Position numbers and translations under genes: made by a program | NCBI RefSeq assembly: GCF_963921235.1 | Contig: NC_086097.1 | Coordinates: 156,366,001-156,430,000 of the forward strand | Length of the DNA: 64,000 nucleotides | Reading direction: 5' to 3' | From: Mobula hypostoma | Taxonomy: Eukaryota | Notes under the pieces: model-generated | What the model was told of the DNA's origin: nothing | The model's input: the letters and a program-made list of their open reading frames with translations, nothing else | The model's database searches: none | In this document: positions 3,556 to 64,000 of the stretch, piece after piece | Numbering within the stretch: position 1 is the stretch's first letter | Layout: every line of letters begins with the position of its first letter

Positions 3556-3832
3556 GAAAGTAAGACAGTTAAGGTGAGAGCTTGGTCCAAGCATCTCAAA
3601 GCATACCCGTCTGCTCTTTGACTCTCATGTGTTGCATCTATTATAGTTTAAGACATGGACATTTTTTTCAGTTTCAACTTCCTGTTGATCCTCTAATTCT
3701 TAACCATCATTCAGAAATAAATATAATAGGACTGTAAAGCTTGAATATTAAACTTCAGTCTCTTTAAATAAATTGCTTGGCCACAATGGCGAAATTGTAG
3801 CTCATTTGATCACATGCTTGAGAATCCTGCTG

Positions 3833-4898: not shown

Positions 4899-5028
4899 AC
4901 GAGAGAAAATCTGCAGATGCTGGAAATCCAAGCAACACACAAAATGCCAGAGGAACTCAACAGGCCGGGCAGCATCAATGGAAAAGAGTACAGTTGAGAG
5001 TGTGGGCCGAAACCCTTCGGCAGGACAA
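4899..5028 (-). mobile_element. Solo PLE 3'-terminal unit (130 bp) with degenerate hammerhead motif
   Basis: Homologous to 42493-42626. Flanked by a perfect 13-bp TSD tccttaattgtat (4886-4898 and 5029-5041). Confidence 0.85.
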
Positions 5029-7857: not shown

Positions 7858-8897
7858 CATAGAAACATAGAAAATAGGTGCAGGAGTAGGCCATTCGGCC
7901 CTTCGAGCCTGCACCGCCATTTATTATGATCATGGCTGATCATCCAACTCAGAACCCCGCCCCAGCCTTCCCTCCATACCCCCTGACCCCCGTAGCCACA
8001 AGGGTCATATCTAACTCCCTCTTAAATATAGCCAATGAACTGGCCTCAACTGTTTCCTGTGGCAGAGAATTCCACTGATTCACCACTCTCTGTGTGAAGA
8101 AGTTTTTCCTAATCTCGGTCCTAAAAGGCTTCCCCTCTATCCTCAAACTGTGGCCCCTCGTTTTGGACTTCCCCAACATCGGGAACAATCTTCCTGCATC
8201 AAGCCTGTCCAATCCCTTTAGGATCTTATACATTTCAATCAGATCCCCCCTTAATCTTCTAAATTCCAACGAGTACAAGCCCAGTTCATCCAGTCTTTCT
8301 TCATATGAAAGTCCTGCCATCCCAGGAATCAATCTGGTGAACCTTCTTTGTACTCCCTCTATGGCAAGGATGTCTTTCCTCAGATTAGGGGACCAAAACT
8401 GCACACAATACTCCAGGTGTGGTCTTACCAAGGCCTTGTACAACTGCAGTAGTACCTCCCTGCTCCTGTACTCGAATCCTCTCACTATAAATGCCAGCAT
8501 ACCATTCGCCTTTTTCACTGCCTGCTGTACCTGCATGCCCACTTTCAATGACTGGTGTATAATGACACCCAGGTCTCGTTGCACCTCCCCTTTTCCTAAT
8601 CGGCCACCATTCAGATAATAATCTGTTTTCCTATTTTTGCCACCAAAGTGGATAACTTCACATTTATCCACATTAAATTGAATCTGCCATGAATTTGCCC
8701 ACTCACCCAACCTATCCAAGTCACCCTGCATCCTCTTAGCATCCTCCTCACAGCTAACACTGCCACCCAGCTTCGTGTCATCCACAAACTTGGAGATGCT
8801 GCATTTAATTCCCTCATTCAAGTCATTAATATATATTGTAAACAACTGGGGTCCCAGCACTGAGCCTTGCGGTACCCCGCTAGTCACCGCCTGCCAT
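7858..8897 (-). mobile_element. Young 5'-truncated CR1 LINE
   Basis: Uninterrupted 312-aa ORF (7949-8887) with SGVPQGSVLGP, KFVDDTK, VRPHLEYCVQFWSP, followed by a 3' UTR and a (tttctatg)n tail at 7858-7873. Confidence 0.95.
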
Positions 8898-9212: not shown

Positions 9213-9480
9213 AGTAATACACACAAGATGCTGGAGGAACACAACAGATCAGGCAGCATCTATGGAAAAAGTAAACCGTTGTCAACTTGGGCCGAGACCC
9301 TTCATCAGGACTGGAAAACAAAACGATTAAAAGATGGTGGGGGTGGGGACGGAGAAGTACAAGGTAGTAGGTGATAGGTGAAGCCGGGAGAAAGGGAAGG
9401 CTGAAATAACCAGATGGGAAGACAATTGGTAAAAGAGATAAAGGGTTGGAGAAGAGGGATCCGATAGGAGAGGATAGTAA
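9213..9480 (-). mobile_element. PLE 3' region, outer part of the left arm of a nested inverted PLE
   Basis: Homologous to 42528-42770. Hammerhead remnant ccagtcCTGATGAagggtctcggccc lacks the GAAA. Homology resumes at ~10722. Confidence 0.8.
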
Positions 9481-12006: not shown

Positions 12007-13195
12007 CACATCGGGAGAGCGTTTTGTCGAGCACATTTGCTCAGTCCTTTGAAAAAATCAGAATTTCTCGATGGTTATCCATTTCAATTCAACTTTGCAT
12101 TCGCATTCTGACATGTCTGTCCGTGGCCTGTTCTACTGCCATGATGAGGCCTAACTCATGTTTCAAAAGCAACACCTTGTATTCCTTCTGGGTAGCCTCC
12201 AGTCTGGGTTGTTAAAGTTGTTATAGCCGAGGGTGGTAATGGGGACAAGCTCCCACTACCTATTAAATGCTCCTAATAGTGTGCGTCTCAGACTGCCTCT
12301 AACTACCAAGTCCAGCTCCTGGCTCTCGTGTGTGGCTTAGCTACTAAGCCCAGTGGAACTATTTCTGCTGTCAGCAGAAGGGGCAAAGTTGGGTGATTGC
12401 TGCCTTAGAACCAGTAGCATTAGCAGGTGGGGTTTCTCAGACATTGTTGGAAGCTCACCTAGGAGAAGGAAAACTCTGATCTCAAACCTCCGCTGCCTTA
12501 TGGCTATACCCACTCACAGGGAAGGCTTCAGAAGTAAACACCATGGGGAAAATCCAGAGCTGCCTCCATAAGGCAGTTCTACATTGAGTTCAAAGCTGGC
12601 TGCCAATCCTGCGGCGCTGCTGGTGCCAAACTGTATCAGTCATTGACGTTCCTTTGTGTTCATCAGATGCGTAGAGAGGGAGAGCTTGCTACATAGGCAA
12701 CATCTCCTTTTCCATATTGTACTGCCCAGGCTTTCACATCCAGACAGCCAGGATGCAACATCCATGGTCGACCCTGATCAACGGAGGCCTCAGCCTGCAT
12801 GAACATGGATTTCTTTAACTTCTGTTAATATCTCCCCTCTCCCTCCTTCTCTCTTTTTCCATCCTTCATTCGGGTTCCCCCTTCTCTTTTCATCACCAGT
12901 CCATCAACTCCTTTTTTTTCTTCCATAATTCTCTGTCCTCTCCTATTGATCCCTACTTCTTCAACCCCTTACCTCTTCCACCTACCACCTCCCAGCTTCT
13001 TACATCATTTCCCCTCCCACACACGCACATTCACCTTCCCCTTCACCTGGTTTCTCTTATGACCTGCCAGTTTGTACACCTTTCCCTCTCACCCCACCTT
13101 CTTATTCTGGCTTCTGCCCCTTCCTTCCTAGTCCTAATGAATGGACTTGGCCTGAAAGGTCAAATGCCTATTCCCCTCCAGAGAATATGTCTGAC
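12007..13195 (+). mobile_element. PLE GIY-YIG C-terminus and 3' UTR, right arm of nested inverted PLE
   Basis: Homologous to 44020-44600, with a degenerate hammerhead at ~13130-13165. Interrupted at 12207-12790. The terminal part resumes at 13450-13512 after a SINE. Confidence 0.75.
12207..12790 (+). mobile_element. Non-autonomous interspersed element, probably RTE/RTEX-type
   Basis: Splits PLE homology, with an imperfect duplication cagtctg/cagcctg (12200-12206 and 12791-12797). A reverse-complement copy lies at ~27050-27605. Class assignment is tentative. Confidence 0.65.
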
Positions 13196-13445: not shown

Positions 13446-14239
13446 AGTAGCACTCCTCCTGCATTTCTGTGTGTTGTTCAAGGTTTACAGCATCTACAGA
13501 ATCTCTTGTGTTCAGAGAGTGCGTGCTTAGTTTTGCACACATTTTTAATGAGTTTCCTTTTTTTAAGATAATGAAATATTATTAAAAGCATGTCTGCTAT
13601 GCAAGATTTTTGAAGACGAGTACTGGCTTTGCTCCATCACATCCTTCTAGCCAAATTAATTCTCTCTATGGTGTAAACATCAATGTTCAACAAGATGGTA
13701 AAATTCTTAGATCAGACTTTCAACCTCAGCCAATTAATATTGTCCTAAACTTTAAGATTATTCTCTGCATAGGATTTACTCACTATACCATAATACTGGT
13801 CTCTTCATAGAGCTTGTCAATGGCACATAAACCAGTTGTAATTCTGAAGCAGTAAAGCAGGAGAAATTGCCTTCTGTTGAACCAGTATCAATTATATCTT
13901 GGGAAGAAATATGAAGACTATTCACTCAAATGGAGAGGAACAACTGTGGGGAATGGGGGTAAGCATATTTGCAATATGTTTGGAATTAATTAAGATAATT
14001 TATCTGTTTTACTTGCTTCAATTGCATTCTATATTTTAATCGTTTCCACTTTTAAATCTTGTTTTATTAACTTTTGGGTTTTTGAACCTATTTGAATTGA
14101 AAGTCTGAACAGGTTTGACAACTGGCAAACCATTGCCATGCTATAAGACCATAAGACCATAAGACAAAGGAGCAGAGGTCGGCTGTTCGGCCCATCGAGT
14201 CTGCTCCGCCAAATATCATGAGCTGATCCATTCTCTCAT

Positions 14240-17072
14240 TTAGTCCCACTCCCCCGCCTTCTCACCACAACCTTTGATGCCCTGGCTACTCAGATACATA
14301 TCAATCTCTGCCTTAAATACACCCAATGACTTGGCCTCCACTGCTGCCCATGGCAACAAATTCCATAGATTCACCACCCTCTGACTAAAAACATTTCTTC
14401 GCATTTCTGTTCTGAATGGGCGCCCTTCAATCCTTAAGTCATGCCCTCTCGTACTAGACTCCCCCATCATGGGAAACAACTTTGCCACATCCACTCTGTC
14501 CATGCCTTTCAACATTCGAAATGTTTCTATGAGGTCCCCCCTCATTCTTCTAAACTCCAAGGAATACAGTCCAAGAGCGGACAAACGTTCCTCATATGTT
14601 AACCCTCTCATTCCCGGAAACATTCTAATGAATCTTCTCTGTACCCTCTCCAACATCAGCACATCCTTTCTTAAATAAGGAGACCAAAACTGCCCACAGT
14701 ACTCCAAGCGAGGTCTCACCAGCGCCTTATAGAGCCTCAACATCACATCCCTGCTCCTATACTCTATTCCTCTAGAAATGAATGCCAACATTGCATTCGC
14801 CTTCTTCACCACCGACACAACCTGGAGGTTAACCTCAAACGTATCCTGTACCAGGACTCCCAAGTCCCGTTGCATCTCAGAACTTTGAATTCTTTCCCCA
14901 TTTAAATAATAGTCTGCCCGTTTCTTTCTTCTACCAAAGTGCATAACCATACACTTTCCAACATTGTATTTCATTTGCCACTTCTTTGCCCATTCTTCCA
15001 ATCTATCCAAGTCTCTCTGCAGACTCTCCATTTCCTCAGCACTACCAGCCCATCCACCTATCTTTGTATCATCAGCAAACTTAGCCACAAAGCCATCTAT
15101 TCCATAATCTAAATCATTGATGTACAATGTAAAAAGAAGCGGCCCCAACATGGACCCCTGTGGAACACCACTGGTAACCGGCAGCCAACCAGAATAGGAT
15201 CCCTTTATTCCCACTCTCTGTTTCCTGCCAATCAGCCAATGCTCTATCCACGTATGTACTTTTCCCGTAATTCCATGGGCTCTTAACTTGTTAAGTAGCC
15301 TCATGTGTGGCACCTTGTTAAAGGCCTTCTGAAAATCCAAATATACAACATCCACTGCATCTCCCTTGTCCAGCCTACTTGTAATTTCCTCAATAAATTG
15401 TAATAGGTTTGTCAGGCAGGATTTTCCTTTAAGGAATCCATGCTGAGTTCTGCCTATCTTGTCATATGCCTCCAGGTACTCCATAACCTCATCCTTAACA
15501 ATCGACTCCAACAACTTCCCAACCACCGATGTCAAGCTAACAGGTCTATAATTTCCTTTTTGCTTCCTTGTCCCCTTCTTAAATAGCAGAGTGACATTTG
15601 CAATCTTCCAGTCCTCCGGAACCATGCCAGAATCTATCGACTTTTGAAAGATTATCGCTAATGCCTCCGCAATCTCCACAGCTACTTCCTTCAGAACACG
15701 AGGGTGCATTCCATCTGATCTGGGAGATTTATCTACCTTTAGACTATTCAGATTTTTGAGTTCTTTCTCTGTCGTAATTGTGACTGCGCACACTTCTCTT
15801 CCCTGCCACCATTGAGTGTCCGGTATACTGCTGATGTCTTCCTCAGTGAAGACTGATGCAAAATACTCGTTCAGTTCCTCCTCCATCTCCTTATCTCCCA
15901 TTACAATTTCTCCAGCATCATTTTCTATCGGTCCTGTATCTACTCTCACCTGTCTTTTACTCTTTAAATACTTGAAAAAGCTTTTAGTATCCTCTTCGAT
16001 ATTATTTGCTAGCTTCCTTTCATAGTTAATCTTTCCCCTCTTAATGACCTTCTTAGTTTCCTCTTGTAAGGTTTTAAAAACTTCCCAATCCTTTGTCTTC
16101 CCACTAATTTTTGCTTCCTTGTATGCCCTCTCCTTTGCTTTAACTTTGGGTTTGACTTCTCTTGTCAAACATGTTTGTATCCTTTTTCCATTCGAAAATT
16201 TCTTCTTTTTTTGGAATATATCTGTCTTGCACCTTCCTCATTTCTCGCATAAACTCCAGCCACTGCTGCTCTGCCGTCTTTCTTGCCAGTGTCCCTTTCC
16301 AGTCAGCTTTGGTCAGTTCCTCTCTCATGCCACTGTAATTTCCTTTACTCCAATTGAAATACCGACTATCAGATTTCGGCTTCTCTTTTTCAAATTTCAC
16401 AGTGAACTCAATCATGTTATGATCACTGCCTCCTAAGAGTTCCTTCACCTCAATCTCTCTGATCACCTCACGTTCATTACACAATACCCAATCCAGTACA
16501 GCCGATCCCCTAGTGGGCTCAACAACAAGCTGTTCTAAAAAGCCATCTCGCAGACATTCTACAAATTCTCTCTCTTGAGATCCAGTGCCGACCTGCTTTT
16601 CCCAATCCACTCGCATGTTAAAATCCCCCACAATTATCATAACACTGCCCTTCTGACAAGCCTTTTCTATTTCCTGTTGTAATTTGTAGTCCACATCACT
16701 GCAGCTGTTTGGAGGCTTATAAATAACTGCCATCAGGGTCCTTTTACCCCTGTGATTTCTTAGCTCAACCCATAAAGATTCTGCACCTACCGATCCTATA
16801 TCACCTCTTTCTAATGATTTAATATCATTTCTTACCAATAAAGCAATGCCTCCCCCTCTGCCTACCTACCTATCCTTCCGATACACCATGTATCCTTGGA
16901 CATTCAGCTCCCAGAGACATGCATCCTTTAGCCACATCTTAGTGATGGCCACAATATCATACCTGCCAATCTGTAGCTGTACGACAAGATCATCCACCTT
17001 ATTCCTTATGCTGCGTGCATTTAAGTATAACACCTTAAGACCAGTGTTTGGTACTTTTTGCTTTGATTTCAC
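14240..17072 (-). pseudogene. CR1 ORF2 (AP endonuclease plus reverse transcriptase), disrupted
   Basis: Endonuclease motifs YLNARS, GDFN, LDWVL and SDHN. RT motifs NYRPVSLTS, YLDFQKAF, GVPQGS and FADD. In-frame stop at 16866-16868 and a frameshift near 16170-16215. The RT part is open for 642 aa. Confidence 0.93.
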
Positions 17073-21986: not shown

Positions 21987-22102
21987 CACAAAGAATTCTG
22001 CAGATGCTGGAAATCCAAAGCAAGGCACACAAAATACTGGAGGAATTCAGCATCAATGGAAATAAATAAGCAGTTGATGTTTCAGGCTGAGACCCTTATT
22101 CA
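21987..22102 (-). mobile_element. Solo PLE 3'-terminal unit
   Basis: Homologous to 42493-42620. 11-bp TSD with one mismatch: atataagtgga (21976-21986) and atgtaagtgga (22103-22113). Confidence 0.8.
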
Positions 22103-23820: not shown

Positions 23821-25475
23821 GACCATAAGATATAGGAGCAGAATTAGCCCATCAAGTCTGCTCTGCCATTCCATTTTTCCTCTCTGCCCTAATCTCCTAC
23901 CTTCCCCTGTAACCCTTGATGCCCTGACCAGTCAAGAAATTATCGTCCTCTGCCTTAAATATACATAAGGACTTGGACTCCACAGCTGCTAGTGTCAAAG
24001 AATTCCACAGATTCACCACTCACTAGCTAAAGAACTTCCTCCTCATCTCCATTCTAAAAGGACACCTTTCGATGGGCTTCAATGAGGACACACCTCATTA
24101 TCTGAATTCGAGTGAATACGGGCACAAAGCCATCAAATGCTCTTCATATGACAAGCCATTTAATCCTGGAATCATTTTCATGAACGTTCTTTGAACCCGC
24201 TCCTGTTTCTACACATCCTCTCACAATGCTCCAAGTGAGTATATTCTATCCATTTAGAAAACAATCAACATTTTCATTTCTTATACCAAAGTACATTACT
24301 ATACACTTCAAGACATTATATTCCATCTGTCACTTCTGTGCCTATTTTCATAATTTGTCTGTCATTTTTTAGCCTCTCTAATTGCTCAAAACTACATGGC
24401 CCTCCACCTATCTTTATGTCATCTGTAAATTTTACAACAAATATATAAGATCCATAGTCCAAATCGTTGACATATAATGTGAAAAGAATCTGTCCTAACA
24501 CAGAACCTCATTGAACACCACAAGTCAGCGGCAGCCAACCAGAAAAGGCTCCCTTTATTCCCACTCTTTGCCTCCTGCCAATCAGCCACTGCTTTAACCA
24601 TTCTAGAATATTTCCTGTAATACCACGGGCTTGTAGCTTGTTAAGCAGCCTCATGTGTGGCACCTTGTCAAAGGTCTTATGAAAATCCAGATACACAATA
24701 TGAACCGATTCTCCTTTGTCTATCTGTTTGTTATTTCTTCAAAGAATTCTGACATATTTGTCAGGCAAGATTTTCCCTTGAGGAAACCATGCTAGCTACA
24801 GCATATTTTGTCATGTTCCTCCAAGTACCCTGAAACCACATCCATAACAATCAACTCCAAAATCTTCTCAACCACTGAGGTCAGACTAACTGGTCCATAA
24901 TTTCCTTTCTTCCACCTCTCGCCCTTCTTGAAGAGTGGAATGACGTTTTCAATTTTCCAGTCTTCTGGAAACATTCCAGATTCTAGTAATTCTTGAAAGA
25001 TCATTACCAATGCCTCCACAATCTCTTTAGCCACCTCTTTCAGAACCCTGGGATGTACAGCATCTGGCCCAGTTGACTTATCTACCTTCAGGCCTTTCAG
25101 TTTCCCAGGAACCTTCTTCCTAGTTATGGTAGCTTCTCACACATGGAACTTCCACCATACTGCTAGTGTCTTCCACAGTGAAGACTGATACTTATTCAGG
25201 TTATCCGTCATTTCCTTGGCCTCCATTACTGCTTCTCCAGCATAGTTTTCCAGCGGTCCGATATCCACTCTCTATTCACGTTTACACTTTTTGTATCTGA
25301 AGAAACTTTTGGTTTCCTCTTTAATATTATTGGCTAGCTTACTTCCATATTCCATCTTTACCTTCTTAGTGACTTTTTTAGTTGCCTTTTTCTCGGTATT
25401 TAAAAGATTCTCAATCCTCTAACTTCCCAGTAAATTTTGCTCTCTCTTTGGCTTTTATGTAGGCTTTGACTTCCA
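23821..25475 (-). mobile_element. Degenerate 5'-truncated CR1 LINE
   Basis: Fragmented RT motifs (PEDWKIENVIPLFKKG, YLDFHKTFDKVPH, KFTDD), internal deletions and a gaccataaga tail. Confidence 0.92.
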
Positions 25476-30640: not shown

Positions 30641-30862
30641 TCAGATGCTCAACGCACTCAGCAGCTCAGGCAGCATCTGTTGTGGAAATAGACAATCAAC
30701 ATTTTGGACTGTTGAATGGTCCAGATAAAATCCAATTCAGTTGCGGGGTCTTGACCTGAAATGTTGACTTTCCATTCCCTTCACGTATGTTGCCTCAGCC
30801 GTTTGTTTACTCCATTATCTTGCTTGTTAGTCCAGACAATATCTGCCATTTCTTCTGTTTCC
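30641..30862. mobile_element. Degenerate miniature inverted PLE-end element
   Basis: An antisense PLE end (ctcagcagctcaggcagcatctg...atcaacatttt) is followed by a sense end (gggtcttgacctgaaatgttgact...tgttgcct). Confidence 0.55.
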
Positions 30863-33991: not shown

Positions 33992-36900
33992 AATCACACA
34001 GGAACTCAGCAGGCCAGCCAGTATCTATGGAAAAGAGTAAACAGTTGATGTTTCTGGACAAGACCCTTCATCCGGACTGGGGAAAATAATAGGAAGCCAG
34101 AGGATGAAGTGAGGGTAGGGGAGGAAGAAATACAGGTGATGGGTAAAACTGGGAGGGAGAAGGAGTGAAGTAAAAAGCTAGGAAGTTAATTGGTGAAAAA
34201 GATCAAGATCTGGAGAAGGGGGAATATGATAGGAGAGGACAGAATGCCATGGAAGAAAGGGAAGGGGAAGGAGCACCAGAGGGAGCTGATGGGCAGGTAA
34301 GGAGATAAAGAGAGAGATGGAAATGGTAATGGGGAATGGTGAAGATAGCTGTAAGATTCAATGTGTTTATAAAAGACATCAGTGGATAAGCTGTCTCGAG
34401 AGATAGATACAGAGAGATCAAGAAAGGGGAGGAAGATGTTGGAAATGGACCGGGTAAATTCAAGGGCAGGGTGGATGTTGAGGCAAAGTTGATAAAGTCG
34501 ATGAGTTCTGCATGGGTGCAGGAAGCACCACCAATGCAGTTGTTAATGTAGTGAGGAAAAAGACCCTATTTTCCCTTCCCCACCACTACCTTGCAATCAC
34601 GTGTCTCTGAAGTTCCACCACCAGCTCTTGGGTCCTCGGAGACTCTATCTTCCTCTCACCCCACTTTTCCTGAACACCCCAACCCTTCCCTCTCCTCTGA
34701 CACTACCAATCCCCATCCCCTCTCTGATCCCAGCTCTTAACTGTGCCAGGTCTTTAGCATTTCTTCTTCAGCTACTCAGTGGATAGAGGCTCAGGTGGCC
34801 CTGATTTGAGGCAGAACGTTCTGTCCACAGTAACGGCCTTACCTTTGTCCCCCTGCTATGATGCTGAGCTCTTCTTCCACCACCTCCATCTCCAAGCCTA
34901 CTTCTTAGACAAGGACTGTCCAGCTTGCACCAATGACCATCTCTCCCATCTTCAACACTCCTCCTCTATTTGGACACCCCACTCTGGTCTTCTGCCTGCT
35001 CTGGATCTTTTCATTGTTAGCTGCTGATGAAACATCACCCTCTTGACTTCACCCCTCCTCTCTCCAATTCCAACCTCACTCCTTCCAAATGCACTGTTCT
35101 CCACTCTCTCCACACTAATCCTACCTCACCATCAAACCCGCAGATAAGGGAGTTGCTGTAGAAGTCTGTAGGACTGATCTCTGCTTTGTTGAGGCCAGGC
35201 GACAACTGTCAGACACCTCCTCTTACTTACCCCTCAAGTAGGACCCCACCAAGGAACACTAGGCCATTAACTCCCACACAATCACTTACCTTATTACCTC
35301 CTGGGATCTCCCATACACAGCTACCAATCTCATAGTTTTCTCACCCCACACCTCCTGTTTCTACCTCCTACCCATTGTTTCTGCTTGTTCCTGCCCCACT
35401 AAATTAATATATGCACATCTCGACTCATTTTTATCCCCCTGGTTCAGTCCCTTCCTACCTACATCCGTGGTACTTCACATGCTCTTGATCTTTCGAGTAC
35501 CCTGGCCCCGATCATTTTATTTTAACAGTGGATGTCCAGTACCTATACACCTCTATTCCCCACCAGGAAGACCTCAAAGCTTTCTGGTTTTTCTGGACAC
35601 CAGACCCAACAATTCCCTTCCACCACGATTCTCCTCTGTCTGGTGGGACTCATCCTCAATGTCAAAAACTCCTCCCACTTCCTTCAAACAAAAGGTGTAG
35701 CCATGGGTACCCGTATGGGTCCCAGCTATGCCTACCTTTTTGTCAGCTATGTGGAACAGTCTATGTTCCAAACCTACCCTGGTGTCCGCCATGTACTACA
35801 CTACATCGACGACTGCATTGATGCTGCTTCCTGCACCCATGCAGATCTCATCACTTTATCAACTTTGCCATCAACTTCCACCCTGTCCTCAAATTTACCT
35901 GGACCATTTCTGACACCTGCCTCCCCTTTCTCAATCTCTCTGTCTCCATCTCTGGAGAAAGCTTATTACTGATGTCTTTTATAAACGCACTGAGTCTCAC
36001 AGCTAACAAGTCTATACCTCTTCCCAGCCTGCTTCTTGTAAATATGCCGTACTCTTCTCTCAATTTCTCCTTTTCCACCTCAACTGCTCTCAAGATGAGG
36101 CTTTTCAATCCAGAACTAAGATGTCCTTCTTCTTCAAAGAAAGGAGCTTCCCTTCTTCAACCATCAACACTGCCCTCAACCACATCTCTTCCATTTCACG
36201 CACGTCTGCTCTTACCCCATCCTCCCGCCACCAGTCCAGAGATAAGGTTCCTCTTGTCCTCACCTATCATGCCACCAGCCTCCACATCCAACACATAATT
36301 CTCCATAGCTTTGGCCATCTCCAACAGGATCCCACTACCAAGCACATCCTTCCCTCTGCCCCACTTTCTTCCTTCCCTATGCAACTCCCTTGTCCATTCG
36401 TCCCTCCCCACTGCTTTCCCTCCTGGCACTTATCCTTGCAACCGAAAGAAGTGTTTCACTTGCCCCTACACCTTCTCCCTCACTAGCATTCATGGCCCCA
36501 AACAGTCCTTCCAGGTGAAGCGACACTTTTTCTGTGAGTCTTTTGGGGTTACCTACTTTATCCAGTGTTTCTGGTACAGCCTCCTATATATCATGAGACC
36601 CAACATAGATTGGGAGAGTGCTTTGCCAAGCACCTACACTTCACCTGCCAGAGAAATGTGGGATCTCCAAGTGGCCATCCATTTTAATTCCACTTCTTAT
36701 TTCCATTCCAACATATCAGTCCGTGGCCTCCTATACTGCCGCAATGAAGCCACACTCAGGTTGGAGGAGCAACACCTTATATTCCGTTTGGGTTGCCTCC
36801 AACCTGATTGCAAGAACATTGATTTGTCGAACATCCAATAATGGCTGCCCCCACCTTCTTTTTCACCATTGCACTTTCCCATTTCCCTCTCTCACCTTAT

Positions 36901-37471
36901 CTCCCTACCTGCCCATCACCTCCTTTTGGTGCTGCTTTCCCTTCCCTTTTTTCCATGGCCTCTTCCTCTCCTATCAGATTCCCCCTCCTCCAACTCTTGA
37001 TCTTTTTCACCAATCAACTTCCTAGCTCTTTACTTCACTCCTCCTCCTCCAGGTTTCACCTATCACTTTGTGTTTCTTCCTCCTCTTCCTCCACCTTCTT
37101 ATTCTGACTTTCCACCTTTTTTTTCCAGTCCTGCCATAACTTATATTCAAAAGAGCCCTTGCCACAACTGTAACACACCTTGTTTGGCCTGGCTGGTTTC
37201 TGTTTAGATGCTGTTCATGCTCACTTTCTTCCTGACTACAACTCAGTTGGATTTCTGTCTCTAGTTTCCATTGAAACAACAATTTCAGTTGCTCTTTGGA
37301 ATATAAGTTGTGTTTCAGTTTGGACCAGGGTCTAATTTCATTGATGAAGGGTCTTGGCCTCAAATATTCACTGTTTACTCTTTTCCACAGATGCTGCCTG
37401 GCCTGCTGAGTTCCTCCAGCATTTTGTCTGTGTTGCTTGGATTTCCAGCATCTGCAGATTTTGTCCTGTTT
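33992..37471 (+). mobile_element. Penelope-like retroelement (Neptune-like), long copy with inverted 5' arm
   Basis: Sense body ~34600-37471 has RT motifs MDVQYLYTSIPH, QTKGVAMGTRMGPSYA and YIDDC, a Cys linker CNRKKCFTCPY, and a degenerate GIY-YIG. Antisense arm at 33992-34560. TSD ctgtttatag (33982-33991 and 37472-37481). Confidence 0.9.
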
Positions 37472-41600: not shown

Positions 41601-41755
41601 GCAACACACGCAAAATGCTAGAGGCTGTCCTGCTGAAGGGTCTCTGCCGAAAATGTCAGCTGTACTCTTTTCCATAGATGCTGCCTGGCATGCTGAGTTC
41701 CTCCAGCATTTTGTGTGTCTTGCTTGGATTTCCAGTATCTGCAGATTTTCTCTTA
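41601..41755 (+). mobile_element. Miniature inverted PLE-end element (155 bp)
   Basis: 24-bp antisense arm (41601-41624) plus a sense unit starting at the hammerhead stem I. Perfect 13-bp TSD agagtaattacat (41588-41600 and 41756-41768). Confidence 0.88.
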
Positions 41756-42105: not shown

Positions 42106-42590
42106 TTCTGTCCTTATCCAACTTTTCAAATCTGTGAATGTAATTCCTCATTATGTAAAATTGATTTGTTTTCCTGGCCAAACAGCTGCTGTAATTTGGA
42201 TTAATCTCAAAACCAGAATGCCTTTATGACAATGTGTTCTTCCCATTTACAAACCATTCAGGTGCACATCAAATGGTCCACTTAACCACACTTGCAGTCC
42301 CTGCATTAATGGAGATTTAAATTCGGAACAATATAATGTACCAATGTGAACAAGGCCTTTAATCTCACTGTGATTCAATGGAACAATGAGGCACAGATTT
42401 TTACTTGATCAGGATATATTCAGCAGCTATATGACCTCACTTGAAATTGTAGCCAAATCTCTATAAGTGCATCTCATTTGGTATATCAACATAAACAACA
42501 GGAATTCTGCAGATGCTGGAAATTCAAGCAACATACATCAAAGTTGCTGGTGAACGCAGCAGGCCAAGCAGCATCTATAGGAAGAGGCGC

Positions 42591-42626
42591 AGTCGACGTT
42601 TCAGGCCGAGACCCTTCGTCAGGACT
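42591..42626 (-). ncRNA. Minimal type I hammerhead ribozyme motif (left arm)
   Basis: Reverse complement reads AGUC-CUGACGA-AGGGUCUCGGCCU-GAAA-CGUC-GACU, identical to the right-arm copy. Confidence 0.8.
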
Positions 42627-44545
42627 AACTGAAGGAAGAGTGAGTTAGGGATTTGAAAGCTGGAGGGGGAGGGGGAGATGCAAAATGATAGGAGAAGACA
42701 GGAGGGGGAGGGATAGAGCCGAGAGCTGGACAGGTGATAGGCAAAAGGGGATACGAGAGGATCATGGGACAGGAGGTCCGGGAAGAAAGACGGGGGGGGG
42801 GTTACCCAGAGGATGGGCAAGAGGTATATTTAGAGGGACAGAGGGAGAAAAAGGAGAGTGAGAGAAAGAATGTGTGCATAAAAATGAGTAACAGATGGGG
42901 TACGAGGGGGAGGTGGGGCCTAGCGGAAGTTAGAGAAGTCAATGTTCATGCCATCAGGTTGGAGGCTACCCAGACGGAATATAAGGTGTTGTTCCTCCAA
43001 CCTGAGTGTGGCTTCATCTTTACAGTAGAGGAGGCCGTGGATAGACATGTCAGAATAGGAATGGGATGTGGAATTAAAATGTGTGGCCACTGGGAGATCC
43101 TGCTTTCTCTGGCGGACAGAGCGTAGATGTTCAGCAAAGCGGTCTCCCAGTCTGCGTCGGGTCTCACCAATATATAAAAGGCCACATCGGGAGCACCGGA
43201 CGCAGTATATCACCCCAGTCGACTCACAGGTGAAGTGATCCCTCACCTGGAAGGACTATTTGGGGCCCTGAATGGTGGTAAGGGAGGAAGTGTAAGGGCA
43301 TGTGTAGCACTTGTTCCGCTTACACGGATAAGTGCCAGGAGGGAGATCAGTGGGGAGGGATGGGGGGGACGAATGGACAAGGGAGTTGTGTAGGGAGCGA
43401 TCCCTGCAGAATGCAGAGAGAGGGGGGGAGGGAAAGATGTGCTTAATGGTGGGATCCCGTTGGAGGTGGCGGAAGTTACGGAGAATAATATGTCGGACCC
43501 AGAGGCTGGTGGGGCGGTAGGTGAGGACCAGGGGAACCCTATTCCTAGTGGGGTGGTGGGAGGATGGAGTGAGAGCAGATGTACGTGAAATGGGGGAGAT
43601 GCGTTTAAGAGCAGAGTTGATAGTGGAGGAAGGGAAGCCCCTTTCTTTAAAAAATGAAGACATCTCCCTCGTCCTAGAATGAAAAGCCTCATCCTGAGAG
43701 CAGATGTGGCGGAGACGGAGGAATTGCGAGAAGGGGATGACATTTTTGCAAGAGACAGAGTGAGAAGAGGAATAGTCCAGATAGCTGTGAGCTATCTACT
43801 ATAAGCCTACTGACTCTCACAGCTATCTCCCTCCTGGCACTTATCCGTGTAAGCGGAACAAGTGCTACACATGCCCTTACACTTCCTCCCTTACCACCAT
43901 TCAGGGCCCCAAACAGTCCTTCCAGGTGAGGCATCACTTCACCTGTGAGTCGACTGGGGTGATATACTGCGTCCGGTGCTCCTGATGTGGCCTTTTATAT
44001 ATTGGTGAGACCCGACGCAGACTGGGAGACCGCTTTGCTGAACATCTACGCTCTGTCCGCCAGAGAAAGCAGGATCTCCGAGTGGCCACACATTTTAATT
44101 CCACATCCCATTCCCATTCTGACATGTCTATCCACGGCCTCCTCTACCGTAAAGATGAAGCCACACTCAGGTTGGAGGAACAACACCTTATATTCCGTCT
44201 GGGTAGCCTCCAACCTGATGGCATGAACATTGACTTCGCTAACTTCCGCTAGGCCCCACCTCCCCCTCGTACCCCATCTGTTACTCATTTTTATGCACAC
44301 ATTCTTTCTCTCACTCTCCTTTTTCTCCCTCTGTTCCTCTGAATATACCTCTTGCCCATCCTCTGGGTCACCCCCCCCCCGTCTTTCTTCCAGGACCTCC
44401 TGTCCCATGATCCTCTCGTATCCCCTTTTGCCTATCACCTGTCCAGCTCTCGGCTCTATCCCTCCCCCTCCTGTCTTCTCCTATCATTTTGCATCTCCCC
44501 CTCCCCCTCCAGCTTTCAAATCCCTTACTCACTCTTCCTTCAGTT

Positions 44546-44581
44546 AGTCCTGACGAAGGGTCTCGGCCTGAAACGTCGACT
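44546..44581 (+). ncRNA. Minimal type I hammerhead ribozyme motif (right arm)
   Basis: Stem I AGUC/GACU, core CUGACGA, short stem II, GAAA, near-absent self-complementary stem III (ACGU). The GUC triplet predicts cleavage after 44577. PLEs are known to carry such motifs. Confidence 0.8.
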
Positions 44582-44689
44582 GCGCCTCTTCCTATAGATG
44601 CTGCTTGACCTGCTGCGTTCACCAGCAACTTTGATGTGTGTTGCTGGTATATCAACATGTTCAATTACAAACAATGGTTTGGTGAAAGG

Positions 44690-45120
44690 TGTTTAAGGGG
44701 TGGTGGGTCAGGTTTGTTTTTTTTTCTTAGACTGAAGGTCTGTGGTCAATTGGGTACGCTGCAATGATTAATGCTGTGTTCTTTGATGTTTGTAGAGGAT
44801 TTTAGGTGAGGGGAAAAGATTTAGAGGAAGGGTGGGTTTTTCACACAGAGGCTGATGGGCATATGGAATGAACTGCTAGAGAAAGTGCAAAAGATGGGTA
44901 CAATTCCAAATTTTGAAAGACATTTAGGCAATTTCATGGAATAGAAAGGTTTAGAGCAGAGGTTTCCAACATGGACTCCTTGCTTAAAGGTATTGGTCCA
45001 TGGCATAAAAAAATGTTGGGAAGCCCTGATTTAGAGGAATATGGGGCTAGCTCAGGCAAGCACCTTGATCAGTATGGATGAGTCAGGCCAAAGAGCTTGC
45101 TTCCGTGCTCTGTGCCTCTG
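44690..45120 (+). mobile_element. Old CR1 fragments
   Basis: FFTQRLMGIWNELLEKV-like translation at ~44838 and a CR1-type 3' UTR. Confidence 0.65.
44957..45028. mobile_element. 72-bp hAT (Charlie-type) MITE
   Basis: Imperfect TIRs cagaggtttccaac / gttgggaagccctg and an 8-bp TSD gtttagag / atttagag. Partial relatives at ~27604-27658 and 50829-50890. Confidence 0.75.
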
Positions 45121-47032: not shown

Positions 47033-50000
47033 AAGATGGCGCTGGTGAACCATGAGGACGTTCTGTAGACCACATACAATACTTCTAAATATACCTACGT
47101 TGAAATGCTCTCATTGCAATCTGCAGCATGTCATTTCTCTTAAAGAAGTATACTTTTAAATTGACTTAATGAACTGCAGATTTCAAGATCTTCTGAAGGA
47201 CTTGGCAGACTTAATTTTCAAGCAAGCAGGTAAAGCACCTTTAAACAGATGAAGGTGCATCACCATGTCTGGAAGCGAGGCAGGAGGGGGTTGGAGCCAT
47301 AAACCTAGCTGAAACGCAGATGAATACGACCCCTCTACTCAGCATCTAGTTAGCAAATGTGCAGTCACTGGACAGCAAAGTTGAGGACCTGAGTGCGGGA
47401 TCGATGTATTAAAGGGAAATGAGAAATTGTTGTGTTCTGTTTTCCCGAGACATGGCTAACTCCCAGACTGCCAGATACAGCGATCAGACCTGAAGGCATC
47501 TTGATACTCAGGACGGACTGAACTGCTGATTTGGAAAAGATAAAAACTAGAGTTTTTTTTTATAATAACCTCTCTGTGGTGCCCTGATATGGTAGTTTTG
47601 TTGAGCTCATGTTCCCCTGACTTCAAACACCTAATGGTCAAATGCTGTTCATTCTATTTACCTAGGGAGTTCTCATCCATGATCCTGACCGCCGTTTAGG
47701 CACCATCAACAGTTGACTATAATGAAGCACTTGACATACTGCATGATGGTATCACCAAATAAGAAATAGTCCACTCCAATGCATTTCAAATCATAGTCAG
47801 GGATTTCAGTCAGGCTTATTTGAAGAAATCCCCGCTCAATTACCATCAGCACATTAATGGTGGCACCAAGGTCTCAATACATTAGACTACTGCTGCACAA
47901 AGATCAAGAATCCCTTCAGTTCCATGCCCAGGCCACAATTCGGGAGATCTGATCACTTGGCTGTCTTTCTCCTACCTGCATACAAGCAGAAGCTGAAAAG
48001 CAAGGCTCCAGGGATTAAGACAACAAAAAGGTATTCACAGGAATCAGCGCCTTCAAGTTAGTGGACTGGACCCTGTTCAAGGACTCATCTGTGGATTTGA
48101 ATGAATGCACAGACTCCACAAAAACAGCTGTAGATAAGTGTGTCTCCAAAAAATCATTCAGAGTCTTCCCCAATCGGAAGCCCTTGATGAACAAAAAGAT
48201 TTGCAACCTGCTGAAGGCCAGACCAGAGGCATTCAAGTCTGGCAACCAAGCAAGCTATAAAAAACCCAAGTATCATCTTCAGAAAGTGATCTCACAGGCG
48301 AGGTGGTAATTCCAGACTAAACTTGAGTCAATGAAGGATGCTTGACAGTTGTGGCAGGGCTTGAATGCTATCACCTCATATAGAAGTGACATAGGAGACT
48401 ACAGGGCTTCACTTCCAGATGAGCTCAATGGCTCCAATGCTCATTTTGAACATTAAAACATGGATGAACCATCACCAACTCCCTCAGTCCCCAGTGATCA
48501 TATGATTTCAGTCTATGAGGCTGGTGTGCAAGCATCCTTCAAGTGGGAGATCCCAGAGAAATCATCCAGCCCATATGGGCTATCTGGTCAAGTACTAAAG
48601 ACCTGTGCTGATTAACTGGCTGTAATATTTACTGAGATTATTAACCTCTTGCTTAGGTAGCTTAAAGCAGACTTCAATTATACCAGTACCTAAGAAGAAC
48701 GTGGTAACCTGCCTTAGTGACTATCGTCCAGTAGCACTTACATGCATAGTGATGAATTGTTTTGAAGGTTTGTGCTGCAACATTTCAACTTCTGTCTGAG
48801 AAGCAACTTGGATCTGCTCCAATTTGCAGATAACAGGGATGCCATCTCATTAGCTCTTCACTCAACTCTGGAACATCTGGACAGCAAAGGTGCATACATC
48901 AGGATGCATTTAAACCACGTCCCCCCCACCAATAATTTTCTGGGCGGTTCTGGAAAACTGAGATGTTATCCCCTCACTAACAGCCACTGGATTCCGTAGC
49001 GATAAACCTACCTTTCTCCAGCTTCGTACATCCAGAGTGTATACAACTTTGGTCCCGCCAAATCCGTGAGGATGGGTTGCCTTGCCCCAGTTTGTGTGAG
49101 TGCTGTGTGATTTACTGCCTCTGGCAAGAAATAACAGATTGTACACTGCATACAATTAAAAAGAAGTATATTTAGGAATGTTAATTTAAGCAAACAGCTA
49201 TTAAATGAAAGAAGGGAAAAAAAAACAAAAATGGCCCATTTCTCTTAAACAGTTAAATATGCACTTAAGTTAGAGCTCATCTTGAACTTCTCTGTCACTC
49301 AGGCACTGGACCCTCAGTCTGCGTGAAAGCACTCACCATCTTCCGAATGTCGCTTGAAATCCATCTCGAACAAATCTTGTAGAATAGGGACAGCATTCTC
49401 AGCTGTCCTTTCCCCTGCCTTCTTCCATCTCCCACCAACAAAGAATCAAGGCCTAGGGATCTCCAGAACCATCTCCCAATTCCACTATCCCAACTGGCTG
49501 ACAGCACATTCCTTAGGGGCACACGCCTCTTATCTTAGCTCAAACCCAAACAAGCTGAAAGCAGAACTGTCTGCTCTTACAGAACTACTAAAATGAAATA
49601 TCTGCAGCACAGCAGTAAAAATCTTAACCAGGGCGTTACACATTTTATTGACTGCAGCTTGGCATTCAATACTATCATTCGCTCTAATCAATAAGGTTCA
49701 AGACCTTGGCCTCAATATCTCCTTGTGTAATTGGATTCTCAATTTCATCATTTGTAGATGACAGTCATTTCAGATTGACAATAACATCTCTTTCTCAATC
49801 TTCATCAGTGCAGATGCACCACAAGGCTTTGTGCTTAGCCCCCTGCTCTACTTGCTTTACCCTAATGACTATGTTGCTAAGCACAGCTCCAATGCCATTT
49901 TCAAGTTTGCTGATGACACCCCTATCATAAGCTGAATCAAATCTGGTGATGAATCAGCATATAAGAGGGAGACTGAAAATCTGGCTGAGTGGTGTCATAA

Positions 50001-50118
50001 CAACAACCTCTTACTCAATGTCAAGGAGACCAAGGAGCTGATTATTAACCTCAGGAGGAGGAGAAAGCCAGAGTTCCATGAGCCAGTCCTCATCAGGGGA
50101 TCAGAAGTAGAGAGGGTC
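47033..50118 (+). mobile_element. Near full-length degenerate Rex1/Babar-like LINE (endonuclease plus RT)
   Basis: 5' aagatggcgc start. Endonuclease remnants (LANVQSL, ETWL, gatcac/SDH) and RT remnants ([14 protein letters not shown] at ~49903, NVKETKELII). Many stops; split by an insert at 48912-49640. Confidence 0.85.
48912..49640. mobile_element. Solo LTR-like insertion (~730 bp) within the Rex1 RT
   Basis: Splits YIRMH|FIDCS coding sequence. Duplication cattt (48907-48911 and 49641-49645). Right end GGGCGTTACA; the left end lacks a clean TG. Confidence 0.65.
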
Positions 50119-52829: not shown

Positions 52830-53245
52830 AAATTCCGTCTGGTTTGCCTCCTGATGGCATAAACATCGCTTTCTCAAACTTCTGATAATCCCCCCCTTCA
52901 CCATTCCTCATCTTCTTTCCCCTCTCTCACCTTATCTCCTTGCCTGCCCATCACGTCCTTCTGATTCTCTTCCCGTATTTTCTTTCTTCCACGGCCTTCT
53001 GTCCCCTCCTATTAGGTTTCCTCTTCTCCAGCCCTGCATCTCTTTCCTCAATCCTTCCCAACTCTTTACTTCAACCCTCCTGGTTTAACCTATCATCTTG
53101 TGATTCTCCCTTCCTTCCCACCACCTTCTAATTCTGACCCCTCATCTTTTCTTCTCCAGTCCTGCTGAAGGGTCTCGGCCCAAAACATCGACTGTACTAT
53201 TTTCCATAGATGCTGCGTGGCCTGCTGAGTTTTGTGTGTGTTTCT
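52830..53245 (+). mobile_element. PLE 3' fragment with degenerate hammerhead
   Basis: Collinear with 44190-44640. cagtcCTGCTGAagggtctcggcccAAAAcatcgactg at 53157-53194. Confidence 0.85.
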
Positions 53246-55299: not shown

Positions 55300-55455
55300 A
55301 CTTAAAGCAGAAAATGCTGGGAATACTCAGCAGGTTAGGCAGCATCTGGCAAAGAGAACCAGTTATGGGATCTGATGAAAGATTTTGGATCTGCAACATC
55401 AACTGATATTTCTTTCCAGAACTGCTGCGTGAAATCAGCACTTTCTGTTTCTATG
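55300..55455. mobile_element. Older miniature inverted PLE-end element
   Basis: Antisense arm (cagaaaatgctgggaatactcagcagg...gcagcatctg), then CTGATGA at 55372-55378, then a sense arm ending cagcactttctgttt. Confidence 0.55.
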
Positions 55456-60347: not shown

Positions 60348-61875
60348 TCACCATATGCAGTTCTGAGATCCATTTTCTTGAGGGCACAATCAGCAATTCG
60401 ACAGGGTAGTAACTATAACAGAGTCAATGAAAGGTCAACCAGAGTGCAGAAGACAATAAATTGTGCAAATGCAAATATAAATAAATAGCAATAAATAATG
60501 AGAAAATAGCATAATGAGATAAAGAATCTTTGAAAATGAGATCATTGGTTGATGAGAAATTTTCAATAATGGGGCAAGTGAAGTTGAATGTAGTTATCCT
60601 CTTTCATTCAAGAGCCTGATGGTTGAGAAGTAGTAGCTGTTCCTTGAACCTGTTGATGCGAATTCTGAGGCACTTCTCCCTGATGGCAGAAGTGAGAAGA
60701 CAACACGACTTGGGTGGTGGGGAACTCTGATAAAAGATGCTGCTTTCTTATGACAGTGTTTCCTGAAGATATGCTCAATAGTTGAGATGGATTTATTCAT
60801 GATGTACTGTAGGAATTTTGTCGGATTTTCCGTTCAAAGGTATTGGTGTTTCCATACCAGGCTATGATGCAGTCAATATACTCACCACAGCACATCTATA
60901 GAAGTTTGACAAAGTTTTAGATGTCATTTTGAATCTCTGAAAAATCCTAAAGAAGTTGAGGTGCTGCCACGTTTTCCTTGCAATCGCACTTATTGCTGAA
61001 TGCAGGACAGGTCCTCTGAAATAGAAACGCCCAGAAATTTAAGAAGTTGCTGACCCTCTCCACCTCTGATCCTTTGATGAGGACTGGCACATGGACCTCT
61101 GGTTCCCTCTCCTGAAGTCTATAATCAGTTCCTTAATCTTGCTGACATTGAGTGAGAGATTAATGTTATGATACCACTCAGCCAGATTTTCATTCTCCCT
61201 GCTATATGCTGATTCATCATCACTTTTGATTCAGCCCATGATAGTGGTGTCATCAGCAAACCTGAATATGACATTGGAGCTATGCTTAGCCACACAGTCA
61301 TAAGCATAAGGTGAGTAGAGCAGGGGGCTAATCACGGCCCTGTGATTATACAAATACAAAAAAAAAACAAAATAGGAACTAGCAATAGGTAAGTAAGTAA
61401 TAAATAATATTGAGAACATGAGTTGCAGAGTGAGACCATAGGTTGTGGAATCAGCTGAGTGTTGGAGTGAATGAAGTTTTCAACTCTGGTTCAGGAACCT
61501 GATGGTTGAAAGGTAATAACTGTTCCTGAACCTGGTGGTGTGGGACCTAAGGATCCCTATAACTTCTTCCAGGTGACAGCGGTGAGAAGGGAACATGAAC
61601 ACAAAAAAATCTGCAGATCCTGGAAATCTAAGCAATACACACAAGATACTGCAGGAACTCAACAGGCAAGTCAGCATTTATGGAAAAGAGTAAACCGTCA
61701 ATATTTCGGGCCGAGACCCTTCATCAGGACATCAGGACAAAGAGCAGGCCTGGATGGTGTGGGTTATTGATTATGGATGATGCTTTCCCGTGTCTGAGCT
61801 CCTTGTAGGTGTGCTCAATAGTGGGGAGGACTTTACCTGTTATGGACTGAGCTGTATCCACTATTTTTTGTAGTT
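60348..61875 (-). mobile_element. Rex1-like LINE fragments (at least two)
   Basis: RVPHHPSRVVFSLLPSGR, IFRFADDTTIMG and HTTRFRNSYY. The outer tail lies left of the Tc1, at 58688-58727. Confidence 0.85.
61598..61738 (-). mobile_element. Solo PLE 3'-terminal unit with apparently intact hammerhead core
   Basis: Homologous to 4899-5028. Minus strand 61697-61730 reads GUC-CUGAUGA-AGGGUCUCGGCCC-GAAA-UAUU-GAC. An 8-bp atcaggac duplication sits at its 5' end. Confidence 0.8.
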
Positions 61876-62443
61876 GTATAGAACAAGAGAAGGCCATTCA
61901 GCTCACTAAGTCAATTCATTTCACCAGGTATGCAGTATATAACTAACTCTAGTAACAATTTTATCCCTTCTAATACATCTCCCAAGGAAGTCATTTCAGA
62001 TTTTATAAAGCTGTTTCCTGCAATTCCCCTTGAAATTAAATTGAGCAAAACTTCACAGCAAGTATCAATCCTAATATAATAAAATTATCTTCAAAATGCA
62101 GCTAAGCACTCATATCAGAATGCAAACGGCTTTGTATATGAAGCCTCACGTGTATCAATATGAAGATAATACAAACAATAAAGTCAAAGCTGGTGATGAT
62201 GGGTCCAGGATGAAATGGCGAACAATTTCAAGTTCATAATGTTGAAAGTTCTTCCTTATTTAATAAATTATTTCAGTAAACTATTTGAAGACCTTCTGTA
62301 AAGGGGAGGGGGCAGTGGGAATATAGGTTGCCAGTCTTAGGTCCTGAAGCTTATGGCTGCACAACTGAGACTGAAGATAAAATATACTGTGAGCAAAATC
62401 TGTACAATATCAATATGCAAACTTCCGACTGTTTACTTCTTCA

Positions 62444-64000
62444 GAATCAGAATCAAAATCAGATTTAATATCACTGTTGTGAAATTTGTTAACTTTACAG
62501 CAGCAGTACAATGAAATACATGATGCATAAATATAGGGGAAGACTGAGTTACATTAGGTATATATATATATATATATATATATATCTATTAAATAGTTAA
62601 ATTTGTAGGCATTTTTGAATGTTTTAGTTGACAAACCAAATCTCCTCAAACCCCTAATGAAATATAGGTGCTGTTTTGCCTTCTTTATAGCTGCATCAAT
62701 ATGTTGCGTCCAGGTTAGGTCCTCTGAGATATTGACCCTTGGGAACTTGAAATTGCTCATTCTCTCCACTTCTGATCCCTCTATGAAGACTGGCTTGTGT
62801 TCCCTCGTCCTATCTTTCCTGAAGTCCACAATCAGCCCTTTGGTCTTGCAGATATTCAGTGCAAAGTTGTTGCTACGACCACACTCAACTAACTGGTATA
62901 TTTCAGTTCTGCATACTCTTTCGTCACCATCTGAGGTTCTGACAACAATTGTTGTATCATCAGCAAACTTATAGATGCTGTTTGAACTAGCCACACAGTC
63001 ATGAATGTAGAGAGGGTAGAGCAGTGGGCTAAGCACATGTTATTTCCAATCCGCAACAGATTGCAGTCTTCTGGTTAGAAAGTTGAGAATCCGGTTGCAG
63101 AGGGAAGTACATGGGCCTAGGTTCTGTAGTTTTTCAATCTTGACATAGCTATTTGCATTGTCCCGGTGATTCAAGGCTGCGTGAGGTGCAATTGAGATCG
63201 CGTTATCAGTAGACCTATTGTGGCAATATGCAAATTGCTGAAGATTCAGGTACTTCCATAGACAGGTGTTGATTCTAGCCATGACTGACCTTTCAAAACA
63301 TTTCATCACTATAGATATGAACGCTACTGGATGGTAATTGCTGAGGCAGGTCACACTGCTTTTCCTGGCATTGGTATAATCGTTGCCCTTTTGAAGCAGG
63401 TGCAAATGTCTGACTGTAGCATTGAGATGTTTAAAATGTATTTGAATACTCCTATCAGTTGGTTGGTACAGGTTTTTAGAGCCTTGCAAGGTACTCCATT
63501 GGGCCCTGCTGCCTTGCGAGGGTTCACTCTCTTGAACGACAGCCTGAAGTCCACCTCCAAGACACAGATCACAGGGTCATCAAATGCTGCATCAATCCTC
63601 ATAGCTGTGGTTTTATTCTCCCTTTCAAAGTGAGCATAAAAGGTATTGTGCTCATCCGATAGTGAAGCATTGGTGCCATTCATGATGTTGGGTTTTGCTT
63701 TGTAGGAAGTATTAGCCTGCAAACCCTGCCACAGTTGATGGGCACCCAATGTCGCCTCCAACCTCTCCCAGAATAGTTTTTTGACTCTTGAAATAGCCCT
63801 CTACAAGTCATACCTGGTTTTCTTATACAAGTCTGAATCACTAGACTTGAATGCCTCAGAGCTAGACCTCAGCAGTCTACGAACCTCCTGGTTCATCCAT
63901 TGATTTTTGTTTGGGAATGTACAGTAAGTTTTCGTAGGGACATACTCATTCACACAGGTTTTAATGAAGTCAGTGACAACTGTAGCATACTCATCCAAGC
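62444..64000 (-). mobile_element. Rex1/Babar-like LINE RT region, runs off the window end
   Basis: RKAAGPNGVP, NYHPVAFISIVMKCFER, QFAY, LSPLLY, YKFADDTTIV and NICKTKGLIVDFRK, with an (agaatc)n tail and (TA)n at 62559-62585. Confidence 0.92.

Follow-up and report, generated by a model that had tools for sequence, protein, structure and literature searches.

A minimal hammerhead motif and the 5' ends of Penelope-like element insertions in Mobula hypostoma

Minimal hammerhead ribozymes (min-HHRs), defined by Cervera and De la Pena (2014) as CUGANGAH-G..C-GAAA-N-palindrome-NUH, occur in the pLTRs of Penelope-like elements (PLEs) of many animals, among them the fish elements Xena, Poseidon and Neptune; they number about 4,000 in coelacanth and about 9,000 in Xenopus, and cleave weakly as dimers or trimers and not at all as monomers. 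For an Anolis PLE, the available part of PMC11167929 describes an uncut RNA template, two start sites of reverse transcription, and a protein-assisted hammerhead that is dispensable in vitro: core mutants were without effect on insertion, and cleavage required the protein. The role of hammerheads in PLEs is called unclear in the accessible sections of PMC8557442, and the accessible text of Li et al. 2026 (bioRxiv 10.64898/2026.07.22.740005) reports retrozymes in its one chondrichthyan genome. Here we analysed a hammerhead motif in a 64,000-nucleotide stretch of the Mobula hypostoma genome (contig NC_086097.1, positions 156,366,001 to 156,430,000; hereafter the window), together with its copies elsewhere in the genome and the points at which they begin and end.

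The motif and the element that carries it

The 36-mer at positions 44546-44581 of the plus strand (AGTC CTGACGA A GGGT CTCG GCCT GAAA CG TC GACT) is, by its sequence and the consensus of PMC4209133, a minimal type I hammerhead motif. Along the plus strand, the 4-bp stem I (AGUC/GACU, 44546-49/44578-81) encloses CUGACGA (44550-56), an unpaired A (44557, base 9.1), stem II (44558-61/44566-69, with a G10.1-U11.1 wobble in the young subfamily), GAAA (44570-73), CG (44574-75) and UC (44576-77), and the predicted cut site falls between 44577 and 44578. Several features expected of a min-HHR were found: the core CUGACGA and GAAA-CG-UC with a tiny palindromic helix III, an unpaired base between A9 and 10.1 (A44557) together with a short stem I, and a location in the pLTR of a PLE with one hammerhead per tandem unit (locus L041). 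This agrees with the earlier note on this DNA, which had recognised a minimal PLE hammerhead with a palindromic stem III; the palindrome is ACGU, and the motif lies inside the 3' pLTR of an element that encodes RT and GIY-YIG. The motif itself is not new, being by sequence a known type of predicted self-cutting RNA. A covariance-model scan, suggested in that note as a check, returned no Rfam match at the gathering score in the window, and in 44450-44700 a threshold of E 10 gave no hammerhead family either, min-HHRs having been originally defined by a descriptor and not by Rfam covariance models. No tRNA genes were found in the 64-kb window.

In nearest-neighbour energies, which leave out core contacts, the best fold of the monomer is a non-hammerhead rod pairing the core with CGUC (-10 kcal/mol, z -0.37); the hammerhead fold reaches -6.0, and a double hammerhead -9.5 versus -28.3 for the best two-strand fold. 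These modelled energies would fit a slow or protein-assisted ribozyme. At base 11.1, T occurs in 92% of 276 young copies (giving G-U) and C in 81% of 21 middle-subfamily copies, and the old copies have G10.1-C11.1 too, once CpG decay is allowed for. The U at 11.1 (window 44569) is fixed in the youngest and most abundant subfamily, probably through a CpG change in the master copy.

The intact motifs claimed at 44546-44581 (+) and 42591-42626 (-) indeed hold the same 36-mer. They are not independent, because one insertion supplies both: its arms form an inverted repeat of 829 bp at 97.9% identity, with a 13-bp TSD, and the minus-strand motif lies in the inverted left arm. This 5'-truncated head-to-head PLE insertion spans 42493-44645; counting from the predicted cut, its left arm extends to +102 and has a tail, and its right arm extends to about +68 without a tail. 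The 13-bp TSD copies lie on the plus strand at 42480-42492 (left) and 44646-44658 (right). In the left arm, coding sequence (42926-43792, -) covers the RT thumb, a CxxxxCxxC linker and GIY-YIG, corresponding to aa 754-1042 of the full-length protein at 95% identity, with stops; that of the right arm (43825-44252, +) runs from the linker through GIY-YIG to the stop codon, with one in-frame stop, and is followed by non-coding pLTR (44253-44645, +) made up of a pyrimidine-rich spacer, the hammerhead and about 68 nt downstream.

The element is seen at greater length in L041, a partial tandem in which hammerheads at 3683 and 7202, at a spacing of 3,519 bp, flank an open RT-EN frame of 1,043 codons that begins about 60 nt after the hammerhead. 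Its protein (P0001) matches RVT_1 (E 3e-5) and GIY-YIG (E 4e-4), both below the Pfam cut-off, and contains DKG at 448, YIDD at 689, the linker CKRNKCYTC at aa 910-918, and CCHH. A single ORF combining RT with a C-terminal GIY-YIG, and the DKG motif, are as in EN+ PLEs, as are the pLTR formed by a partial tandem, the inverted 5' copy, the one-sided tail and the TSD, all of which are present. The CX2-5CxxC linker, which according to the accessible part of PMC8557442 is common to Neptune and Nematis, would point on sequence to one of these two groups; the best named homologues of the protein are from bamboo shark (72% and 68%), which makes a cartilaginous fish the likely host. The N-terminal 300 aa (L041:3773-4700) include a long Pro/Ser-rich segment ahead of the conserved RT N-terminal motifs, and the first in-frame ATG of the ORF stands at the short 3' end, with GTG in many copies. 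A pattern for the ORF start has 549 exact matches in the genome, so about 1% of copies extend that far. At L241 (C1:46047602-46049001), C2:157816701-157817357 and C2:122542740-122543038 this pattern is repeated at 260-435-bp spacing; these short head-to-tail units of pLTR end, hammerhead and ORF start are possibly retrozyme-like.

Abundance and decay of the copies

A profile built from the window copies found 13 family matches in the window and none in a reversed control. The count of about a dozen copies given earlier holds at all listed places but three, 30750(+), 37130 and 55372(+), which the profile left unmatched and where heavily decayed or interrupted pieces are visible. The CTGANGA...GAAA core is kept in only three family copies of the window. 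The label of decayed copies does not suit 5027, 41626 and 53158, which carry an inherited A6C and not random decay: these are two short A6C-lineage copies starting at -31 (4932-5027, -; 41626-41724, +) and an old A6C-lineage copy with upstream pLTR (53126-53242, +). Old decayed copies lie at 9214-9323 (-), 13117-13191 (+), 22019-22101 (-, core broken) and 33995-34102 (-), with an old decayed inverted pair at 30642-30769 (30711-30642 on the minus strand and 30746-30769 on the plus strand, the latter a weak match, E 0.1) and a heavily decayed inverted pair at 55308-55400. In another old copy (37127-37437, +), which is preceded by decayed RT-EN sequence (34803-36838), about 207 bp of unrelated DNA appear to interrupt CUGAUGA, leaving pieces at 37127-37133 and 37342-37437. 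An older diverged PLE (42-67% aa) with RT and EN (+) and an inverted piece (-) occupies 34333-36838, up to the split hammerhead at 37127/37342. Other interspersed repeats, 67-84% identical between copies, occur at 7858-8896, 14150-16115 and 23911-25441, and at 2114-3538, 48403-50118 and 60823-63036; they had no match to the PLE protein and are probably LINEs.

Genome-wide, an exact 34-nt pattern had 45,139 matches in 3.48 Gb and its backwards control none, a CpG-tolerant pattern had 77,799, and a profile search gave 611 matches in 181 sequences (1.86 Mb), with none in the same sequences reversed. The designation as a high-copy ribozyme family is borne out in its first half by the 45,139 exact copies; as to the second, the ribozyme is a passenger of PLE insertions, its core decaying like the non-core. 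With 45,139 or more exact motifs, this genome has about five times as many as the highest number given for a vertebrate by Cervera and De la Pena (2014), who defined min-HHRs. Our literature search yielded no report for this lineage or of a 5'-end pile-up; Lunse et al. 2017, which may list cartilaginous fishes, lies beyond its scope, as do Frangieh 2024 (Fig. S2) and the Li 2026 supplements, which may bear on the point. What is new here is the lineage, the copy number and what the copy ends reveal, and nothing beyond, because the motif class is already in print for other fishes; insertion anatomy, too, was already known.

Decay was counted in 591 distinct copies (305 young, 196 old and 90 other or unassigned). 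The excess conservation of the core over its flanks that the earlier note had proposed as a check is absent among young copies, in which changes at non-CpG core positions (34/2,108) are as frequent as those in the stems (64/4,009; 1.6% vs 1.6%). The corresponding numbers in old copies are 117/1,195 (9.8%) for the non-CpG core, 293/2,223 (13.2%) for stems and loop and 604/5,661 (10.7%) for the tail. Individual copies decay neutrally, as expected of dead-on-arrival insertions. Between the young and old majority sequences, the motif differs at 2 of its 36 bases (N7 and 11.1) and the adjoining flank at 16 of 25, and so the motif has been under selection of some kind. This does not single out catalysis, because the loop and the further tail, like stem II, are also conserved between the lineages and no double stem change separates them; nor were compensatory changes found within the families.

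The old-subfamily short copy at 61631-61743 (-) has an intact core and, as described earlier for 61697-61730, the variant GAAA-TATT (61731-61696, -); a covariation reading of the accompanying C-G to U-A pair change is unsupported. For the genome-wide check, the first 100 of 1,895 matches sharing the downstream flank were counted by hand: positions 15.2/16.2 were CG in 30, TG in 30, CA in 37 and TA in 3, that is, single unpaired changes in 67/100 versus U-A in 3/100 within this flank-matched subfamily. A compensatory stem III change was rejected on this TG/CA excess, the mark of CpG decay, and GAAA-TATT at 61631-61743 is most likely CpG decay as well. TA occurs in 9/153 old copies versus 1, 2 and 4 at three other CpG sites, a slight excess that would allow for a minor TA sublineage.

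A pattern forbidding A at position 6 had 2,948 matches, the first 100 of which, counted by hand, carried C (71), G (16) or T (13); this C excess is the reverse of the expectation from point mutation. Old-type flanks are common to 20/23 A6C copies, several of which have upstream endonuclease sequence, and some are stubs beginning at -31/-32, including those at 5027 and 41626 in the window. Judged by these sequences, the A6C copies form an older lineage with A6C in its master sequence, its own flanks and a linked endonuclease sequence, of an estimated size of about 1,700 or more strict matches. A natural A6C hammerhead has low activity, below 0.1 per minute, in the accessible part of PMC3088659; by analogy, a lineage with a weakened core has likely spread. 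The A6C lineage could also have been mobilised in trans by an intact-core partner.

Where insertions begin and end

Ends were mapped for the young subfamily in 146 loci, taken from the first matches of two patterns wholly downstream of the cut in the first 63 Mb of contig C1. The 185 anchored young copies were reduced, by merging arms and duplicates, to 141 insertions (76 solo and 65 inverted); copies beginning downstream of +5 are invisible to this anchor, and 14 loci picked by the hammerhead pattern itself (L139, L140 and L209-L220) were excluded from the counts. One duplicated copy among the 146 loci shares its flanks. The 5' ends pile up in front of the ribozyme: 69/141 insertions begin at -65..-15, versus 6.3 expected from the rate beyond -100, with 27/141 at -33..-30 and 16/141 exactly at -31 (neighbour mean 1.7). 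This modal end is the second base of stem I (44547, +), in TTAG/TCC after a polypyrimidine tract. At the cut, ends within 3 nt number 3/141 versus 0.8 expected (P 0.045), which leaves room for a small excess; six inverted arms end near it, and microhomology in stem I could explain these. The solo copies taken separately have 33/76 at -65..-15, 8/76 at -31 and 1/76 at the cut. Two artefacts were considered: simulated random truncations were called flat, which discounts the -31 peak as a product of alignment, and apparent 5' ends at +20..+34 were traced to an indel in the reference copy.

Individual TSDs of 11-15 bp flank many of the short solo copies, some lack a detectable one, and 3' ends cluster at about +65-72 and at +102. 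The arm lengths of inverted insertions correlate (rho 0.68). Many insertions are perfect hairpins of 200-270 bp whose arms turn at the hammerhead (L062:4871-5136, L114:4854-5093, L103); some hairpin junctions exploit the complementary AGTC/GACT of stem I, and usually one arm has a long tail and the other a short end. Copies that contain the ORF start were mapped separately (25 copies at 24 loci, of 549 matches). Of these, 19 reach beyond +5 and the other six begin at +29..+111; among the 19, none begins within 3 nt of the cut, five at -27..-48, one at -7 and 13 past -80. The last number implies that many templates were longer read-through or multi-unit RNAs.

Because half of the young insertions begin upstream of the cut, we propose an uncut template that starts at the front edge of the ribozyme: with a probability of roughly two in three, the tens of thousands of copies are insertions reverse-transcribed from such RNA. 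Transcription would start at or just before stem I, and the RNA would be uncut when copied. The protein would prime at the tail closest to the 5' end of the RNA and run off it, yielding stubs of 100-135 bp, or prime at the next tail and fall off at random, yielding long truncated copies; fold-back or double priming may produce the inverted pairs. To judge from its homologues, the ribozyme would be slow, dependent on a dimer or on protein, and dispensable for insertion, and cutting, when it occurs, would by analogy remove just the first ~30 (capped) bases. The sequences TCCAGT (old) and TTCAGT/TTAGT (young) resemble an initiator; the -31 mode lies one base inside the A(-32) that this initiator reading predicts, and the five ORF-start copies nearest to it end at -27..-48 and not at -31.

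The same pile-up could arise at a 3' splice site, if the uncut RNA starts further upstream and the polypyrimidine tract and AG just ahead of stem I carry splicing factors or intermediates that stall reverse transcription. The AG at -32/-31 after a pyrimidine tract is kept in the young (TTAG/TCC) and old (CCAG/TCC) lineages, and the spread of ends over -65..-25 would match the tract plus possible branch points; moreover, the intron of Penelope in D. virilis reaches to the 5' border of helix I and terminates in GUUAG (Cervera and De la Pena 2014), with a start site 46 nt before this 75-nt intron (PMC2377424). However, upstream exon sequence was joined to none of the copies in 57 short rows, none of the joints listed for six contig sets (whose source runs may be DNA) is of the GT..AG type, and no convincing U2 donor is apparent by eye in the pLTR, making a splicing roadblock unlikely. 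These six sets cover the element throughout, show no ends, and are from runs not on record as RNA; no RNA run was listed as containing the element. Three contig joints enter at 44546, as would fit short copies inserted in other copies; in contigs from two related organisms the final endonuclease codons (window 44227-44233) are joined to 44546, suggesting insertion of short copies into the AT-rich ends of others.

A sharp common start could also belong to a non-autonomous element (SINE- or retrozyme-like) that propagates itself from its own master copy, or the motif could be a promoter or protein-binding site that never cuts. The monomer fold that is not a hammerhead, the conservation of loop and stem II like that of the core without covariation, and the failure of 8/9 Xenopus dimers to cleave, as given in the accessible text of bioRxiv 10.64898/2026.07.22.740005, would all suit such an origin. 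We nevertheless rate it very improbable, since the short copies end at scattered points, have fold-back junctions that are each unique, share their subfamily variants with the long copies and are not in tandem arrays, and since every core position fits a hammerhead consensus common across phyla. The arrangement of non-LTR retrozymes, head-to-tail units without an ORF, was likewise not found for the short copies, which are solo or head-to-head in the 146 loci.

Conversely, the ribozyme might be active and needed in vivo, with dimers in tandem transcripts excising unit-length RNAs for ligation into circles, and with the -31 ends coming from a minor side pathway. Cervera and De la Pena derive partial tandems from the copying of circles; such tandems exist here (L041, L042), the lineages retain the motif but differ in its immediate flanks, homologue dimers and trimers do cleave, if weakly, and a re-ligated circle has no end at +1, so that few +1 ends are compatible with it. 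Yet half of the insertions end at a point absent from a circle, the A6C lineage has reached its estimated size of about 1,700 or more strict matches, core mutants of the Anolis element left insertion in vitro unaffected (available part of PMC11167929), and Naiad PLEs are described as thriving without hammerheads in the portion of PMC8557442 at hand. We regard an essential circular intermediate as quite improbable.

Returning to the uncut template starting at the front edge, a tentative extension, which we hold to be possible rather than probable, is that the hammerhead forms the first 36 bases of the mRNA, that the uncut capped RNA serves as both message and template, and that slow, protein-assisted cutting acts as a cap-removing off-switch that can be lost, as in A6C. 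If this extension is true, the tens of thousands of stubs would chart the RNA 5' end in vivo, in the richest hammerhead-bearing type of vertebrate genome among the reports found. The copies provide natural evidence at scale, with starts in front of the ribozyme and not at the cut and with a lineage of likely weakened core that still spread, and the genome evidence supports in vivo what the in vitro study showed for the lizard element. It also supplies an exact candidate position for the RNA start, 44546-44547.

Comparison with known systems

The motif resembles the min-HHRs of Cervera and De la Pena (2014) in its CUGANGA-H-G..stem II..GAAA-CG-UH layout, 4-bp stem I, U-rich upstream sequence and pLTR position, and its copies, like theirs, are mostly single truncated copies and opposite-strand pairs; many rows of their alignment (Fig. 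S3) read GAAA C G U C, the same as here. It departs from that set in host, their 56-motif list and Table S1 being without cartilaginous fish, in uniformity, one near-invariant motif here standing against many variable families there, and in the G10.1-U11.1 pair of the young subfamily (92% of 276 copies), where their conserved pair is G-C.

Poseidon PAc of Anolis carolinensis (Frangieh et al. 2024, PMC11167929), in the parts of that paper available, likewise has a hammerhead at the pLTR-ORF junction and an uncut template, and its two 3' ends at the ORF start, separated by about 35 nt, are matched here by those at +65-72 and +102. Unlike PAc, the element described here has the CX2-5CxxC linker of Neptune/Nematis and a pile-up of 5' ends, none being reported in those parts for PAc, and the evidence is genomic here and biochemical there. 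With the complex insertions of EN+ PLEs, as portrayed in the accessible portions of Craig et al. (2021, PMC8557442) and Arkhipova et al. (2013, PMC3846280), it shares 5' truncation, partial tandems, an adjoining inverted copy, a one-sided tail of 30-40 bp and a short TSD; in contrast to the insertions portrayed there, about half of those here are stubs of 100-135 bp or hairpins of 200-270 bp whose 5' boundary is defined at the ribozyme. Finally, the non-LTR retrozymes of Li et al. (2026, bioRxiv 10.64898/2026.07.22.740005) carry, in the available text, a type I hammerhead from PLE pLTRs, as does the element here, but they are head-to-tail tandem units, whereas the copies described here are dispersed singles or head-to-head pairs.
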